Shown here piece by piece: positions 5,909 through 41,603 of a DNA stretch of 64,000 nucleotides. The stretch comes from an uncultured Bifidobacteriaceae bacterium (lineage in GTDB: Bacteria > Verrucomicrobiota > Verrucomicrobiia > Limisphaerales > UBA11358). The position numbers were made by a program, and so were the translations under genes. Where the stretch lies: the NCBI GenBank assembly GCA_964532525.1, contig CAZHIM010000006.1, forward strand, positions 46,309 to 110,308, given 5' to 3'. Position 1 is the first letter of the stretch; each line of letters begins with the position of its first letter. The notes beneath the pieces were generated by a model. That model saw only the letters and a list, made by a program, of their open reading frames with translations. It was not told the origin of the DNA and did not search any database.

Positions 5909-6004
5909 CGAGTGGAGACATGCCGTAAATTCGTCCTGCCGGAACACCGTAGATTCAACCGGCCAACCAGACGTTTTGCCGGCAGTACGCACCTCCATCT
6001 ATTA

Positions 6005-20018: not shown

Positions 20019-20693
20019 TTATTTTGCCGCTTCCGACTTTTTGCCAAACCGGTTTTCCGTGCCGGCCAGGAGCCGTTGAATGTTGGATTTGTGCTTGTAG
20101 ATCGCCAGTGCCCCCAGCGCCGTCGTCACGCTCCCCAGCAGCACATTGTGCGGCGGCATGGCCCAGACCGCCGCCGGCAGCGCCACCGCCGCGGCGATGG
20201 ACCCCACGGAAATATACCGCGTGGCCACGACCGCCAGGAGGAACACCACCAGCGCAATCAGCAACGCCCACGGCGCCAGCGCCAGAAACACCCCCGCCGT
20301 CGTGGCAATGCCCTTCCCGCCCTTGAATTTCAGCCAGCACGTGTAGTTGTGCCCCAGCACCGCAAAAACACCGCCCAGCACGTAAAATCGCATCTGCAGC
20401 TCCGCCGGCTCATTTTGAAAATAAACCGCCAGTCCGGAAGCATGCGCCGCAAATTGATTGAATATCCAGGGCGGCAGACCGGCGCACGCCACGTAACCCT
20501 TCGCCGCATCCAGCAGCAGCACCAGCACGCCCACCGGCTTGCCCAGCACGCGCATGGCGTTGGTGGCGCCGATATTGCCGCTGCCCACCGTGCGAATATC
20601 AATGCCCCTGGCCTTGGCGGCCAAAAACCCAAACGGTATCGAGCCCAGCAAATAGGCCCCCACCGCCACCGCTATGTAACAAAAAACCGGCAC
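20019..20693 (-). CDS. plsY: glycerol-3-phosphate acyltransferase PlsY
   Basis: GSIPFGFL, RTVGSGNIGATNAMRVLG, LLDAAKG, GHNYTCWLKFKGGKGIAT. GTG start. Confidence 0.9.
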   Translation of the reverse strand: MPVFCYIAVAVGAYLLGSIPFGFLAAKARGIDIRTVGSGNIGATNAMRVLGKPVGVLVLLLDAAKGYVACAGLPPWIFNQFAAHASGLAVYFQNEPAELQMRFYVLGGVFAVLGHNYTCWLKFKGGKGIATTAGVFLALAPWALLIALVVFLLAVVATRYISVGSIAAAVALPAAVWAMPPHNVLLGSVTTALGALAIYKHKSNIQRLLAGTENRFGKKSEAAK

Positions 20694-20839
20694 AACCGAT
20701 TCTATGAACCCCGCCTCCCAACTTCAAAGTCCAAAGTTGCCACCCGGTTCGGATACGCTGCCAAAAACGCAATCGAAAATCTGTCGTAAAATTCGGTTTG
20801 CAAAGCACAGTCAATTTTGTATAGGAGTAACCGTTACCT

Positions 20840-22303
20840 ATGACGGATGGCCCCAATAGCCTGCTTCCCATCTTCACGTTTGACGGAAATGACGGTTGGG
20901 ATGAATTGAAACAGTTGGCGCAGCCGGAGCTGGATAGCGGCGGCACGGCGCGTTTAATGTCCGCCTTGGGCGAAAAGGCCAAAGCCGTGGCGGTTGAACG
21001 TCACTACATTGACAAAGATTACCGGGACACGTTTTCCAATTTTCATTCCAAGCGATTTAGCACACCTAATTCTCGTTGCTTACGGCTTCACTTTTTTAGC
21101 AAAGCAGTCACTCGTGAGGACATTCGGCACGCCGAGAATATTCAGTCAGATTATCTCGGGTATGCAATCATTCGGCCGACTCGCCCCAACTGTCTCGGTC
21201 GCACTCTGTTGAAGCCGGAATCCCGCAGCAGAGTTTCAGGTTCCATGCGCCTTTGTAAAGAAACGCTTACCCTGCAAGGCACAGAATTAACGGTTCAGGG
21301 GTTTCCGTTCATCAGTCAGGACGCAGACGTGACCGTTTGCGCTCAGTCTGCCCTGTGGATGTTGGTCCGCTATTATAGCAACCGCTACCCGCTTTACCCA
21401 GAAACGTTTCCTTATCAGTTGGCAAAGCTCACCGAGGATTATTCCCTTGGCCGGGTTTATCCATCATCGGGACTTTATCTTTGGCAAATGACCGAGTCGC
21501 TGCGACGGCTCGGCTTCAGCCCTGTCACCTATACTCGCGACCGGTTCAAGAACGATTTTGACCACTTGCTTTATACCTACATTGAATCAGGAATCCCGGT
21601 TTTGGCGGCGACAGAACGGCATGTGGTCGTTGCTTTCGGTCACAAATCGGAATACGTCAAGCCCGATCCATTGCCAACGGAAATTTCCTTTTCGTCACAA
21701 TTCAACCACGCGCTCGTGGTAAACGATGATAATCGGATTCCGTATCAGTTGTTGCGCAAAAAGAAGGTGAAAACGCCTGATGAGTCAAATTACGAGTTTG
21801 ACGACATCACGTCCTTCGTTGCGCCATTGGCTGAAAAAATATTTCTGTCAGCGGAAAGTTTTCAGAAGGTCGTGACGACCATACTCAATCGGGGCGACGT
21901 TGGATACAAGGCACTGTCGGCAACGCTTTCGTCGGAACCGTTGGTTTTGCGATTATTCCTGACCACGGGGAGGTCGTTCAAAAAGCGTTTGACCGAACGC
22001 GGGATGGGCAACGTTTTGGTCGAGCAAGTATATCGAAATCTTCCGCTTCCCCACTTCTTTTGGGTCTGCGAGATTTCGCACGTGGAGGCATACTTGCAGC
22101 ATCGGATTTATGGCGAAATTCTGTGGGACGCGACCCGCAATGCGTCCGAGCCGGACGGCTGGATCGCACTCCACTATCCTGAAGTGCTTGTGGTGGATGT
22201 GGGCTCAGCCCTGAACGAAAGCCAAAAACTCAAAAAATATTCTTTGCAAAATTCCGAAATTTATCCACTTTATCGCAGTAATTTAACAGACATCCAGCTA
22301 TGA
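20840..22303 (+). CDS. hypothetical cytosolic protein with central papain-fold C39-like cysteine peptidase core and unrecognised N- and C-terminal domains
   Basis: 487 aa with no signal peptide or TM segment visible. Motif order is Q160-x6-C167 (ISQDADVTVCAQSALWML), H261 (ERHVVVAFGH), N295-D296-D297 (VVNDDN). AGGAG lies 12 nt upstream of the ATG. Local GC is far below that of the neighbours. Confidence 0.6.
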   Translation: MTDGPNSLLPIFTFDGNDGWDELKQLAQPELDSGGTARLMSALGEKAKAVAVERHYIDKDYRDTFSNFHSKRFSTPNSRCLRLHFFSKAVTREDIRHAENIQSDYLGYAIIRPTRPNCLGRTLLKPESRSRVSGSMRLCKETLTLQGTELTVQGFPFISQDADVTVCAQSALWMLVRYYSNRYPLYPETFPYQLAKLTEDYSLGRVYPSSGLYLWQMTESLRRLGFSPVTYTRDRFKNDFDHLLYTYIESGIPVLAATERHVVVAFGHKSEYVKPDPLPTEISFSSQFNHALVVNDDNRIPYQLLRKKKVKTPDESNYEFDDITSFVAPLAEKIFLSAESFQKVVTTILNRGDVGYKALSATLSSEPLVLRLFLTTGRSFKKRLTERGMGNVLVEQVYRNLPLPHFFWVCEISHVEAYLQHRIYGEILWDATRNASEPDGWIALHYPEVLVVDVGSALNESQKLKKYSLQNSEIYPLYRSNLTDIQL

Positions 22304-22482
22304 ACGACCAGCTTGAATTGATCCCCGGGCAGGGAAAACCGCCGGAGCCGCTGTTCAAATCCGAGCACGACTATCAAGAGTTTCGTCGTACTTACACTGA
22401 GGAAATCGCACCCCGCTTGGAACAACTTCGCGAGGCTCGCCGCCAAAGTGAGGAGCAGTCCAAAAAGCATTGGATGAGCTGA
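22300..22482 (+). CDS. small charged hypothetical protein (60 aa), translationally coupled to the peptidase-like gene
   Basis: ATGA start/stop overlap with the upstream gene, same low-GC composition, and a hairpin plus T7 terminator follows. No family recognised. Confidence 0.45.
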   Translation: MNDQLELIPGQGKPPEPLFKSEHDYQEFRRTYTEEIAPRLEQLREARRQSEEQSKKHWMS

Positions 22483-22506
22483 AACCGTCGCATCTTTTTT
22501 ATACCC

Positions 22507-22535
22507 GGCAGCTAATCGAACGGCTGCCTTTTTTT
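22507..22535 (+). terminator. rho-independent terminator of the low-GC two-gene cassette
   Basis: The stem is ggcagc (22507..22512) paired with gctgcc (22523..22528). The loop is 10 nt, followed by ttttttt (22529..22535). Confidence 0.6.
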
Positions 22536-22553
22536 GGAAACAGACCGTTACCC

Positions 22554-25160
22554 CTACCGGACCAGCACCGTCCGGTAAAACTGCGCCGCCGGGCTCCCCG
22601 CCGCGGGCAGGTTGAAATCAAACACCCCGTTGACCGGTGAATTCGTGCTCACACTGGTCCAGCTCACCAAATCCGGCGAAGCTTGGACCGCGTAATCATG
22701 CCCGTCATACCCGCTGAATTCCACCTGCACCTGTCCGTTGGCCGAAACCATTGTCCCCCAGGGGTCCATCCGTAACCGTGGCAGGAGCTGACTCGGAATC
22801 GCTTCGTAGGCCTGATCGTTAATCGCGTATTCCTGCTGTGCCGCCGGATTCACATTTAGAAACGGCGATTCCACTGTCAATTGCGGCGCCGCCAGAATAT
22901 CGCCAATCCCGTGGAACACCTGACCGAGGAACACCGCCTTCGCCGATTCTATGGCGTCCGCAATCATCACCGCCTGCGCCGAATTGGACGAAATCACGAT
23001 CGGACTGAATTCGGGGGAGATGTAGGCGCCCGGATACTCCACGATGTTGGTCAAGGCAGTAAGCCCATCCAGCTCCATCGCCCAAGCATTGGGATCCGGA
23101 TCGCTCACTGGAAACTGGGTCCGTAAATCATTCGTGTTGAGGACTGCCGCCAGCAAACTCACCAACTGCCAGTCGTACACGGGCGCGGATTCCGTCGCAT
23201 CCAGGTATGCGCCCGTGGCTGCATCTTGCAGCAGGTCGCCGGTCCATGCCGCCCACGTCACCAGACCGGTTGGAAAACCACTATTAGAGTAAGCCAGGAT
23301 ATTCGTGGATTTGAGATAAATCGTCTGCCACGGCGTGCCGCGATGCACTTGGCCAAGCCAGCTCAGATTCCACGTCTGCCCCGTTGGAAAGTTCCAACCA
23401 TCCGCGGTCCAAACCAACGGGTCTTTGTAAGCCAGGTTGTACGCGTTTTGATCCACTGTCGCGCCCATTGCCGCCATCTGCCCAAGCTGGCCCCATGGCT
23501 GGTAACGCCCTTTGAGGGGCGTTGCTGGCGGCGTTGGCATCGGCTGCGTGGCGCCCGGATCGTCACTGTGCGTCCACACACAGTTGGTCGCCACCTGCTG
23601 CGCGGCCCAGATGGCCCGCGTGCCGGTCTGTCCGTTCAAATCGCTGGCCAGATAGTGCACCAGCGGATCATTTGCTTGCAAAAGCAAGGACACATACACT
23701 GTTCGCGTTGGCGTGTACGGCGCCTGCATGCTCATCTGGCGGTTCACATACGTCTTTCCCTGATAGTCGAAACTGGCCGTAAAAAACCCATCGAAGAAAG
23801 CCGCTTCTGCGCCCGGCGTGATTAGCCCCATCACCGTGAGCGCAGTGCTCCATTGCCCCCCAAGCGGTATTTCCGAAACCGGTGTCGGACCCCCGGGAGC
23901 CGGCGGATGGCCCGATATGTACAGTTGGTTGAGTACCCCAAACGGAACCGTTGACGCGGTTCCGAGAGTATTTGTGCTCCATTGATAATAGACGTTACCG
24001 ACCTGGGGATAATTCCAGTCCGCCAATGCCTGGTTCAAACCGCCGCACACGGCCGAACAAAGCTCCACGTAATCTATCACGTTGCCGCCATCCAAAATAT
24101 ACCCCTGCAAGTAATTCGTAACCGACAGTCCAATCTGATCCAAATTGCTCATCTCGGGGTTGAAGCATGTGTAGTTCAAGAAATTGTGGGTGGCGAAATC
24201 ATAGGCCAGCGGGCTCTGGTACAGTACGCCCCAATTAAAGGAGAAAAAGGACGACATCTGTGGCAGCATGTTCGGCGGGGTGCCGCTCCATTGTGAACCC
24301 GGCCACGCATTGATCACTACATTTGTGTAAAAATTGGTGGGCGAAGCGTCCGAGTGCAAAGGCCATACGTGATACCCATTGGTCATGAATTCGTTCAGGG
24401 AGTCCGACACCACCACTTGCAACGGCCGCGGGTAGGCCGAACTGTACGGGTTCCAGAACGAAATCCCCACCTCGTTCGTGATGGGACCGATGATATACTC
24501 CTGGTTCGTGCTATAACTGGCCGTGGCGACGTCCAATGACGTGCGCGTCAATTCCAGCTTTCGCGTCACTTGCGCGGCGCTAATCAGGGAAAGTTGGTTA
24601 AAATTCGGCAGGCCCTGCTTGGCCCCGATGACCCAAGGCACGCCATACACATTCACCAGGCCGTTGCCGTCGGCAACCGGGTCCATCCCGGCAAAATCCA
24701 CCAGCTCCGCCGGCGCATACGGAGTGGCCAACTGCGGGTCGGACGGCCCGGACACATTCGTCACCTGCGCATAACCGCAAATATAAACGTCGCCGGCCGC
24801 ATCGGCCGCAAACAGCGGCCGGAAGACGCTCGGGTAAAAATTCGTGTTTTCCGCGTCCAGAATATTGGCCGTCACCTGCAGCAGCCGATGCACCGCCGGC
24901 GTGTATTGATTCGTGGGATAAATTTGAAGCTGGGTGAGATTGACGTTCAACTGCGCCGACAACAACCGGCTGGCCACATTCGTAAAGAAACTGATCGGGG
25001 TGGTCGTATCGAACGTGGGATCGGCCGCCGCCGGCCCCGGCCGGAAGAGGAGGATCGCCACGCCCAGCGTGAGCCCAAGCCAACGCCAGCCCCGCACGCC
25101 ACGGTTGTCCCGGGGCCAACTTCTGATTTTCTCCGGTGCGTTGCCGGCGCCGTTGCGCAT
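22554..25160 (-). CDS. large secreted hypothetical protein with C-terminal FYR-ending module
   Basis: 868 aa from the ATG at 25160, with a signal-like RGWRWLGLTLGVAILLFRPGPAAA. No enzymatic motif recognised. The C-terminus VQVEFSG...YAVQASPDLVSWTSV...AQFYRTVLVR resembles the C-terminus of the 7143..11051 protein. Confidence 0.65.
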   Translation of the reverse strand: MRNGAGNAPEKIRSWPRDNRGVRGWRWLGLTLGVAILLFRPGPAAADPTFDTTTPISFFTNVASRLLSAQLNVNLTQLQIYPTNQYTPAVHRLLQVTANILDAENTNFYPSVFRPLFAADAAGDVYICGYAQVTNVSGPSDPQLATPYAPAELVDFAGMDPVADGNGLVNVYGVPWVIGAKQGLPNFNQLSLISAAQVTRKLELTRTSLDVATASYSTNQEYIIGPITNEVGISFWNPYSSAYPRPLQVVVSDSLNEFMTNGYHVWPLHSDASPTNFYTNVVINAWPGSQWSGTPPNMLPQMSSFFSFNWGVLYQSPLAYDFATHNFLNYTCFNPEMSNLDQIGLSVTNYLQGYILDGGNVIDYVELCSAVCGGLNQALADWNYPQVGNVYYQWSTNTLGTASTVPFGVLNQLYISGHPPAPGGPTPVSEIPLGGQWSTALTVMGLITPGAEAAFFDGFFTASFDYQGKTYVNRQMSMQAPYTPTRTVYVSLLLQANDPLVHYLASDLNGQTGTRAIWAAQQVATNCVWTHSDDPGATQPMPTPPATPLKGRYQPWGQLGQMAAMGATVDQNAYNLAYKDPLVWTADGWNFPTGQTWNLSWLGQVHRGTPWQTIYLKSTNILAYSNSGFPTGLVTWAAWTGDLLQDAATGAYLDATESAPVYDWQLVSLLAAVLNTNDLRTQFPVSDPDPNAWAMELDGLTALTNIVEYPGAYISPEFSPIVISSNSAQAVMIADAIESAKAVFLGQVFHGIGDILAAPQLTVESPFLNVNPAAQQEYAINDQAYEAIPSQLLPRLRMDPWGTMVSANGQVQVEFSGYDGHDYAVQASPDLVSWTSVSTNSPVNGVFDFNLPAAGSPAAQFYRTVLVR

Positions 25161-25666
25161 TTGAAGCCCATTGAATCCCACCCCCCGGATAAAGCAATCG
25201 AATTTCGCCACTCCGCAAGCCTCCCCGGCCATCCAGAACGGGTCGAATTCTCGCTTGAACCGTACTTTTGGACGTGGCGTCCACGGCCGATTGTTAGCCG
25301 CTAACGAAAAATCGTCCAAACGACACATTTTTCGCTCCCGACGGCCGTTGACGGCCCTCAAAACCTGTTAAACTTCCCTTGGCGGGACCGCTTCCCGCCA
25401 CGATGGAAATGCCTCGTGCCATCGTCGAAATCGGCATGGCGGCTCTCCCCGCCAGCGCTCCCTCGTTGTTTTCTTCCCCCCGCATGGCCGGCGCGCTCAA
25501 CCGCGCCGTAAGCCCCGAAAAACCCCCGAAAAGCCAAGGCAAAAATTTTGCAAAACCCCTGCAAAAACCCCCATCGTCAACCCCCGTCAACCCTAAAAAT
25601 CTTTTGCCTCTCCCGGCCGGCGGCGCCGGCTTCCCGGACCGACCGGCCCGCACCCGCCATTCCGAC

Positions 25667-40275: not shown

Positions 40276-40580
40276 ATCTTCACAGTTCATCGCGATCAAA
40301 ATGGGCTTCATTGTCAAATAAGAAAAAGATCCGGAGTCCCTGCGCCTGGCTGAGGAACTCGCCACCACGTTGACCCAACACGATTGGGAAGTGCTTTATC
40401 AGTGGCTTCGGGTGTCAAAACTCGAAATCATCGAAAGAGCGACTGCTTCCGAAATTGATGTCCGCCACCTGCCAGATGCGGCCAACGGTCGAATGATCCC
40501 ATTCGTGGAAGTCTTTCCGTTTGGCTTGCTCTTCTATTTTGAGCGGCAGGGTGCGGTTTGGGCGGCGGTCTTCCCGCTCT

Positions 40581-41603
40581 TTACTTTCCGCCGGTTGTTT
40601 CATGGCTTGCCCTGCGGACTTTCGCCGCCGCGGCGATTCTGGCCATCGCGGCAGGGCTCATTTTCCGCTTGGCCGGCTGACGTCGCGCCGCCGGTTTCGT
40701 GGCTTTGGCCCAACGCGCCCGCGCGGCTGCCGCCATCTTTGCCCTGGCCGCTGCACTGATCCGGCGCTTGGGCTTTTTCGCCGGCTTGGCTGTTGGCGTT
40801 GGAACGGCTGCCGGCGGGGCCAGCGGTTTTGGCGACTCCGCCGGTTTTGTCATTTTCGCAGCCGGCTGGACCGGGACTTGTGCGTCAGCCAATTCAATGC
40901 CGAAAACATCCGTCAACTCCTTGTCCGTCAATGCCGGTGCGCCGTCGGTCCCCGCCGTTTGGCGGACGGCTTCGGCGGCGGAAGCTTGACTGATCAGGTC
41001 GGCGGGATCCACGCCGCGCAGCAGAAAAAGCAGTTCGGGACTTTGATCCAGCCGCGCGCCCACACCATACAACGAAGCGGCGACGTGTTTGCACAAATCG
41101 GCCCAATCGGGGCAGGAGCAATCCAAGTCAATTTCTTTGGGGGTCGGAAAAAGCCCGCCCGCGGGGCGGGTCACTATTTGCATCACCGACGAGGAGAGTT
41201 TGCCCTGGAGCAATTCCATGAGGGAATCAATTTTCCCGGCGCATTCGGTCTGGATGGATTTCCAGAGGCTGGCCGCCAGCGGCTTGATTTTGATTTCGAT
41301 CTGGTACAGCTCCGAGCCGGAAACTTGGGCGACTACTTTGCCCCGGCTGATCTGGAGATCCACCACCGAGCCGTTGCGGACATAGGTGCGGCCGCGGGGC
41401 AGGCGGTTGGCATAATCGCTGTATGCCTCCAAATTATCGCACCACGCCTTGCCCCAAAAAGTGCTGGCAATCTTGCGGCTCTCCAAGCGGACCGGCGAGG
41501 CAACCGCGCCGGTCTTTTTGGCCAGCTTGGCCAGTTCACGCGCGGCCCGGGCGCGGCGTTCCGCCACCGGCACATACGGCCGCCATTCAAAGCCCCAACT
41601 CAT
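40581..41603 (-). CDS. SWIM zinc-finger protein with basic Ala/Lys/Arg-rich C-terminal tail
   Basis: SWIM CxCx(n)CxH signature in DLDCSCPDWADLCKHVAASLYGV. Sits immediately downstream of the SNF2 helicase gene on the same strand. Confidence 0.8.
   Translation of the reverse strand: MSWGFEWRPYVPVAERRARAARELAKLAKKTGAVASPVRLESRKIASTFWGKAWCDNLEAYSDYANRLPRGRTYVRNGSVVDLQISRGKVVAQVSGSELYQIEIKIKPLAASLWKSIQTECAGKIDSLMELLQGKLSSSVMQIVTRPAGGLFPTPKEIDLDCSCPDWADLCKHVAASLYGVGARLDQSPELLFLLRGVDPADLISQASAAEAVRQTAGTDGAPALTDKELTDVFGIELADAQVPVQPAAKMTKPAESPKPLAPPAAVPTPTAKPAKKPKRRISAAARAKMAAAARARWAKATKPAARRQPAKRKMSPAAMARIAAAAKVRRASHETTGGK

Follow-up and report, generated by a model that had tools for sequence, protein, structure and literature searches.

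A low-GC two-gene cassette coupling a C39-like cysteine peptidase to a small helical protein: a candidate mobile conflict module

Organization of the cassette

The window analysed here is a stretch of 64,000 nucleotides (64 kb) of contig CAZHIM010000006.1 (assembly GCA_964532525.1), from an uncultured bacterium whose GTDB lineage places it in the Verrucomicrobiota. On its + strand lie two overlapping open reading frames (ORFs) that together make up a compact cassette: a large gene (20840..22303), which encodes a three-domain protein of 487 aa, and a small gene (22300..22482), which encodes a protein of 60 aa. A first-pass annotation of the window had described the pair as a cysteine peptidase with a coupled small protein, and had suspected horizontal acquisition. 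From the sequence comparisons set out below we consider the cassette a good candidate for a new module of the toxin–antitoxin-like (TA-like) or anti-phage kind.

The signals expected of an autonomous transcription unit that the earlier annotation had listed are present where it had placed them. A ribosome-binding site, AGGAG, is read from the + strand sequence at 20823-20827, 12 nt 5′ of the ATG at 20840. The two genes share an ATGA start/stop overlap at 22300..22303. Downstream, also on the + strand, an intrinsic terminator occupies 22507..22535; its stem-loop (22507..22528), with a 7-bp stem containing five G–C pairs and an 8-nt loop, is followed by seven T. The segment 20786..20839 (+ strand) is a candidate promoter/operator region carried by the cassette itself, a role suggested by its conservation between non-syntenic copies. 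A simple sigma-70 consensus scan found no + strand promoter in 20786..20839, and an Rfam scan of 20400-22800 found no RNA family.

The large protein

What kind of enzyme is the large protein likely to be? Its central domain (aa 154-300; 21299..21739, + strand) is identified as a C39-like papain fold by Pfam, by Foldseek and by the conservation of its residues. The catalytic residues follow the papain order that had been read from the translation at the outset: Q160 (codon 21317-21319), C167 (21338-21340), H261 (21620-21622) and an acidic/amide cluster, now delimited as D296-D297-N298 (21725-21733), all encoded on the + strand. All of these are invariant in 45 close homologues. In a more distant set (n = 52, reaching down to 25% identity) Q160, H261 and D297 remain invariant and C167 is present in 51 of the 52; the Cys and His motifs are kept family-wide. 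Because the catalytic residues are retained in close and distant homologues alike, we conclude that the large protein is very probably a catalytically active enzyme.

The sole Pfam family matched by the large protein is Peptidase_C39_2 (PF13529; aa 154-270, E = 3.8e-4), and the match is sub-threshold, at 21.5 bits against a cut-off of 24. PF03412 gave no match to the large protein. Twelve of the 52 relatives match PF13529, and only a distant plasmid relative lies above the cut-off (24.7 bits); four relatives weakly match Peptidase_C10. Searches of NCBIfam and PADLOC gave no match to the large protein, while PDB sequence searches with the single protein and with the family profile returned nothing meaningful. 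No confident homology to a housekeeping enzyme came to light in these searches, just the sub-threshold Peptidase_C39_2 match.

An AlphaFold2 (AF2) model of the large protein, made with 45 homologues, is a confident single body (predicted local distance difference test (pLDDT) 90.3, predicted template-modelling score (pTM) 0.91). Against the PDB, Foldseek matched only the central domain of this model. The best matches are the peptidase domains of PCAT1, ComA and the AMS/PCAT double-glycine protease 6mpz (probability 0.99-1.0, E about 2e-3). Second in rank are the proteases specific for ubiquitin-like proteins (Ubls), ZUFSP/ZUP1, Mug105 and UfSP2 (E about 1e-2, query TM-score about 0.25). Pseudomurein endoisopeptidase, phytochelatin synthase and calpain come lower, and prostaphopain B is also among the matches. 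Against BFVD there were just weak matches to the papain core; low-probability ‘beta clamp’ alignments in that search were dismissed as noise.

The hydropathy scan revealed no transmembrane segment (the highest Kyte–Doolittle 19-residue mean is 1.09) and Pfam no ABC transporter domain, in agreement with the first-pass annotation. The N-terminus is not hydrophobic, no dedicated signal-peptide predictor having been run.

What lies on either side of the core? The N-terminal α/β domain (aa 1-153; 20840..21298, + strand) and the C-terminal domain (aa 301-487; 21740..22300, + strand) are conserved to at least the degree of the catalytic core. In the close set the invariant residues of the N-terminal domain (~150 aa) are E53, Y56, D58, D60, R62, R82, H84, F86, G107, Y108, R112, G120, R121 and T122, which fall in the motifs E-x2-Y-x-D-x-D-Y-R, R-x-H-F-F, G-Y-x3-R-P and G-R-T. 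Those of the C-terminal domain (~190 aa) include R371, T375, P404-H405-F406, W408, E411 and the motif W429-D-A-T-R-N434, and the corresponding patterns are P-H-F-x-W-x2-E and W-D-A-T-R-N. Neither domain has a match in Pfam, NCBIfam, PADLOC, the PDB or BFVD, whether by sequence or by Foldseek. The two regions that could not be assigned in the first reading match no family or fold in these libraries either, and its picture of a C39-like fold between novel flanking domains is borne out by the AF2 model and the Foldseek matches.

How closely, then, does the large protein resemble the C39 peptidases (PF03412, PF13529)? With PCAT1, ComA and 6mpz it shares the papain fold and the order Gln, Cys (at the start of a helix), His, Asp. 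However, the cassette domain is cytoplasmic and free-standing, with no ABC exporter fused or adjacent in the loci examined; the small ORF supplies no double-glycine substrate; and the domain is buried between two additional conserved domains. Its HMM (hidden Markov model) score is below the Pfam cut-off and its Foldseek E-value only about 2e-3. The large protein is built on a C39-like scaffold and lacks two of the features that define C39 peptidases, a score above the HMM threshold and the link to an exporter and double-glycine peptides.

The small protein and its coupling to the large protein

Is the 60-aa ORF a real gene? An HMM of the small protein finds it directly 3′ of the large gene in 36 of 36 PVC-type (Planctomycetota–Verrucomicrobiota–Chlamydiota) loci, with E = 1e-17 to 1e-31 and a spacing of -3 to +15 nt between the two genes. 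Of these loci 33 are species-level loci, the window is one and two come from metagenomes; each had to contain the whole large gene and its 3′ flank. The 60-aa ORF is a real gene. In the Bacteroidota an ORF of ~65 aa lies 3′ of the large gene in 69 of 80 loci (median spacing -10 nt), and in the Desulfobacterota loci examined a basic 57-aa ORF begins 2 nt after it. In four distant plasmid copies an ORF of 52-60 aa is placed upstream instead, 55-85 nt away. The coupled small gene proposed at the outset therefore accompanies the large one in every such PVC-type locus and in most Bacteroidota loci.

The small protein is acidic (pI 5.6) and very hydrophilic. Its AF2 model (pLDDT 87) shows residues 22-59 as one long helix, which carries an EARRQSEE motif, preceded by an extended tail (LELIP..PLF) at the N-terminus. 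Among 29 close relatives 23 of the 60 columns are invariant, and Pfam, NCBIfam and PADLOC all lack a match to it. Across clades the partners are alike in size, position and predicted helical character.

Do the two proteins evolve together? Their pairwise divergences are correlated (Mantel r = 0.705, a value reached in 0 of 2000 permutations), the small protein evolving faster, with a mean p-distance of 0.62 vs 0.48 for the large protein. Inspected longer homologues have N-terminal extensions or an insertion, and none is a natural fusion of large and small proteins. Two copies in metagenome-assembled genomes of Planctomycetota (our loci L033 and L043) may be decayed cassettes: the match to the large protein ends at residues 355 and 239, respectively, within continuing contigs, and no small ORF was detected in either.

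Composition and mobility

How did the cassette come to lie where it does? Its G+C content (GC) is 0.507, against 0.618 ± 0.030 in equal-sized non-overlapping windows (z = -3.6), and the lowest value of any other equal-sized window in the 64 kb is 0.537. At third codon positions its G+C content is 0.58, compared with 0.71-0.86 in plsY, gpsA, an M50 peptidase gene and a gene of 935 aa. In the window-wide comparison its tetranucleotide distance reaches z = 4.4. The cassette is the strongest compositional outlier of the window, and its GC dip is the deepest; the first-pass annotation, from a hand count of two segments, had already seen here the sharpest break in composition.

Copies of the cassette with 87% and 80% identity occupy wholly different gene neighbourhoods. 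Some 55-70 nt 5′ of the ATG can be aligned among the non-syntenic copies of the window, L048 and L050; farther upstream the sequences are unrelated. The similarity between copies stops at the stop codon of the small gene, so each copy has its own 3′ end. From the upstream conservation and this downstream limit we place the transferable unit at about 20786-22540, close to the 20790-22545 of the first-pass annotation. Because homologues of 80-87% identity sit in unrelated contexts, and with the cassette at the GC extreme, the horizontal acquisition suspected earlier is well supported. The copy in the window stands by itself, inserted among housekeeping genes.

The aligned upstream segment contains the pattern AAATTC.GT.TGCAAA ... 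TTT.G.ATA, found in L048 and L050 at about 5950-6000. An exact 9-nt direct repeat, ACCGTTACC, flanks the cassette, at 20830-20838 (before the ATG) and at 22544-22552 (after the terminator). As other copies do not conserve it, we regard it as a probable chance repeat and not as a target-site duplication.

Size and distribution of the family

An exhaustive HMMER search returned 3820, 2751 and 657 clusters, defined at 50% identity, at E ≤ 1e-3, 1e-10 and 1e-30, respectively. Nearly all of the best 150 clusters match across most of the query, the exceptions being mostly truncated proteins. A word-indexed search gave 324 homologues of the large protein. The source annotations call these ‘hypothetical’ or, at best, ‘papain-like cysteine protease family protein’. 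The family is large, and no source names it beyond that generic label. No description of it was found in the literature searched, the coverage of which was incomplete, and an earlier description is possible.

Members occur in Verrucomicrobiota, Planctomycetota, Hydrogenedentota, Chloroflexota, Fibrobacterota and Gammaproteobacteria, in Desulfobacterota, and also in Bacteroidota, Chlorobiota, Spirochaetota and Bacillota; in this last group a single pattern matched 203 species. Two plasmid relatives, one in Pseudomonas aeruginosa (L052:6830-9010) and one in Shewanella (L053:6974-9133), are longer, at ~720 aa. The additional length is a C-terminal domain of ~200 aa in which both have the motifs GHP[ST][ML]TG..AARI[AG]GE and YSGRYS. 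This domain, without a match in Pfam or the PDB, may be an added effector domain.

Genomic neighbourhoods

In what company does the pair travel? By raw counts, the most recurrent neighbour families in both clades are N6_Mtase, Methylase_S, Eco57I, ResIII and MmeI_Mtase. The pair resides in type I restriction–modification (RM) operons in two arrangements: hsdM-hsdS-[pair]-...-hsdR in an Opitutaceae genome (L002) and hsdR-ygjP-[pair] in Desulfurivibrio alkaliphilus AHT2. HsdM and HsdS are the nearest neighbours in 3 of 33 PVC loci, and HsdM and HsdR genes lie near the copy P0016. In three Bacteroidota loci a type IIG, MmeI/Eco57I-like methyltransferase ends 16-19 nt upstream. Near other loci there are genes for Cas, caspase-family, CHAT and nSTAND proteins, integrases, transposases, large helicases and HTH-ImmA/IrrE regulators.

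The D. alkaliphilus locus (L135:3044-8648) belongs to a cultured organism with a complete genome (CP001940.1, about 2351631-2353278). There the pair lies on the strand of the hsdR and YgjP-like genes, after a gap of 12 nt, and an nSTAND NTPase and a transposase are encoded upstream of it.

A second association is with the Bub operons, recognised here by Multi_ubiq/Prok-E2_E, ThiF and DUF6527. Type I or II Bub operons directly adjoin the pair in 8 of ~130 loci (L001/L010, L051, L052, L068, L072, L105, L120 and L134), which span Verrucomicrobiota, Pseudomonadota (Alpha- and Gammaproteobacteria) and Bacteroidota. The orientation of the pair relative to Bub varies, being convergent, divergent or tandem. 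In the window the cassette is flanked by no gene for a Bub component, be it BubA (the Ubl), E2, E1 (ThiF) or BubE (DUF6527). The sparse Bub operons have as yet no settled biological role (bioRxiv 10.1101/2024.11.21.623953, 10.1101/2024.11.21.623966). Since they are so sparsely distributed (bioRxiv 10.1101/2024.11.21.623953), their adjacency to the pair is a large excess over expectation. Either a functional link or mere co-residence in defence islands could account for it.

Interpretation

What might such a cassette do? We propose that it is a conflict module of the TA or abortive-infection type, complete in itself and spread by horizontal transfer, and put the probability of this at about one half. 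What is observed is a coupled, co-inherited pair with an intact Q-C-H-D site in the large protein, a rapidly evolving, small helical partner, a patchy and non-syntenic spread, and repeated residence in RM operons and beside defence or mobile-element genes. The protease would be the effector. The small protein would regulate this cognate protease, most likely as an inhibitor or pseudosubstrate that binds it tightly and is synthesized alongside it, while the N- and C-terminal domains would sense a trigger or gate activation. Triggered by an infecting phage or by the partner's loss, the protease may cleave host or phage proteins and so halt growth or phage replication.

Known systems offer partial precedents. 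In the staphopain–staphostatin (sspB-sspC, scpA-scpB) and SpeB–Spi pairs a papain-fold protease is accompanied by a co-transcribed specific inhibitor that acts in the producer's cytoplasm. The gene logic, a protease gene followed by a small gene, is that of the cassette, in which the small protein would inhibit likewise. However, staphopains and SpeB are secreted virulence factors with propeptides, and staphostatins are eight-stranded β-barrels of ~105 aa, whereas the large protein of the cassette has no hydrophobic N-terminus and its partner is modelled by AF2 as a 60-aa single helix with an extended tail. A second precedent is the anticodon nuclease PrrC of the prr locus, a latent abortive-infection effector carried in a type I RM operon, the classic site for such cargo. 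Like PrrC, the pair is found on the same strand as hsd genes, either between them or immediately behind them (L002, D. alkaliphilus). Unlike PrrC, it encodes a protease rather than an anticodon nuclease and brings its own small partner, and most of its copies lie outside RM operons. With the CHAT and caspase-like proteases of type III CRISPR and gasdermin systems, and with Lit, it would share a principle, immunity executed by an intracellular protease under regulation. The protease clan is a different one, though; accessory genes are not shared, and the pair is not linked to genes for a cyclic-nucleotide sensor, gasdermin or CRISPR.

One relative, P0147 (L138:161-2285), has a TIR domain at its N-terminus, matched by the TIR models of Thoeris and Aga, TIR effectors being used in Thoeris and other systems. 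It is the only family member examined that has a degenerate active site (C167S, A168P, N298K), and the 208 nt that follow its stop codon accommodate no small ORF. No second TIR fusion occurs among 422 relatives, and those closest to P0147 (60-62% identity) are unfused proteins of the ordinary type. Loss of both the Cys and the small ORF fits the view that the protease would be the effector and the small protein its keeper.

Several observations weigh against a conflict module. Metabolic genes with no relation to the pair make up most of the nearest neighbours (118 neighbours, with 171 Pfam families), and the association with defence is therefore limited to a minority of loci; the copy in the window lies among housekeeping genes and not in a defence island. 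PADLOC-DB v2 has no match for the proteins of the window or for nine of ten relatives tested, and the tenth, P0147, matches solely through its fused TIR domain, itself a single case on a 2.3-kb contig. On plasmids the family is represented by 4 of 72,556 records, in the phage record collection by none and in IMG/VR by six loci only, from which it is nearly absent. Homology between the PVC and Bacteroidota small proteins is not established (hhalign P = 0.058). Finally, the papain fold can also perform non-proteolytic chemistry.

Could the cassette instead be a plain addiction-type TA module, in which a protease toxin and a labile small antitoxin stabilize the carrier DNA and play no anti-phage role? 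We think this unlikely. The coupled two-gene unit, its mobility and the co-divergence of its proteins suit addiction as well as they suit a conflict module, and the cassette resembles TA systems in having adjacent, coupled, co-inherited genes that are mobile and patchily distributed. In one locus the large gene overlaps, at its start, with a UPF0175 antitoxin-like gene, and AbiEi and RelE/ParE genes lie near two plasmid loci. But a family so rare on plasmids is not what addiction would lead one to expect, and repeated embedding in RM operons or beside Bub is more typical of defence cargo. Nor does any known TA family model match: searches of Pfam, NCBIfam and PADLOC place neither protein in a toxin or antitoxin family already described. 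The first-pass annotation had likewise been unable to match the cassette to a system familiar to it, and the models of defence families give no match either.

A Ubl-specific, deubiquitinase-like peptidase, working with or against Bub-type pathways and using the small protein as adaptor or substrate, we regard as quite improbable. Structurally, UfSP1/2 and ZUFSP/ZUP1 (with Mug105) rank just below the C39 peptidases, and relatives of the cassette repeatedly adjoin Bub operons, in the 8 of ~130 loci and three phyla given above. Yet the structural matches are weak (E about 1e-2), and more than 90% of the loci, the window included, have no E1, E2 or Ubl gene nearby. The variable orientation relative to Bub is that of island neighbours rather than of parts of one operon. 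Bub operons, moreover, encode peptidases of their own, JAB and BubE (bioRxiv 10.1101/2024.11.21.623953).

The first-pass annotation had offered TA, anti-phage and peptide-maturation systems as options. Genomic context favours a TA-like or anti-phage role, and peptide maturation, in which the C39-like peptidase would remove the leader of a precursor encoded by the small ORF, now seems very improbable. C39 domains do process double-glycine leaders (PCAT1, ComA and 6mpz, the top Foldseek matches, are such proteins), and a peptidase gene with a 60-aa ORF beside it looks like a pairing of protease and precursor. Nevertheless, the small protein has no conserved Gly-Gly or Gly-Ala/Ser across the clade, is hydrophilic, is predicted to form one long helix and is conserved over its whole length. 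The precursor-like gene is downstream and translationally coupled, and the loci examined lack an ABC transporter, a modification enzyme, an immunity gene and a signal peptide.

That the large protein is simply a housekeeping or metabolic enzyme, such as an amidase or transferase with a papain scaffold, and its low GC incidental, is scarcely credible: this would suit the housekeeping neighbours in the window and the non-protease activities of which papain-fold proteins are capable (a C39-like glycosidase is reported in PMC13642728), but it is at odds with the patchy phyletic spread, non-syntenic even at 80-87% identity, with the outlying composition and with the lack of conserved metabolic neighbours.

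What would follow if the cassette is, as we propose, a conflict module? A defence or TA role would add a large family, of at least 657 clusters at 50% identity in many phyla, with a protease clan not yet used there and two domains without structural relatives. Its members include culturable Bacteroidota (with strains of Chitinophaga, Pedobacter and Indibacter), Desulfurivibrio and Pseudomonas (P. aeruginosa plasmid p4782_002). Even as a mere addiction module it would represent a new toxin class, the papain-fold protease. Given the open role of Bub, the adjacency to Bub operons is a concrete and testable lead. The pair might go further and be the founding example of a widespread protease-based immune module, with N- and C-terminal domains that are new infection-sensing or gating domains, a small partner that is a fast-evolving keeper, and part of the family wired to Bub, e.g. 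as a missing effector or as a protease specific for Ubl conjugates; this larger picture, taken whole, we consider clearly unlikely.

Other features of the window

As the first-pass annotation had it, the cassette is inserted between the plsY and gpsA genes and a large convergent gene. The former (Pfam G3P_acyltransf and NAD_Gly3P_dh) lie upstream, on the opposite (-) strand. The latter, an ORF of 924-935 aa at 22554-25361 on the - strand, has no Pfam match; six peptide patterns found no relatives of it in the species-representative genome collection, and the 935-aa product is, judging by these patterns, a large lineage-restricted protein. Elsewhere, an AT-skew spike at 40501-41000 (-0.478), which contains no tandem repeat and is ordinary, marks the coding sequence for the C-terminal tail, rich in Ala, Lys and Pro, of a 340-aa protein (40581-41603, - strand).

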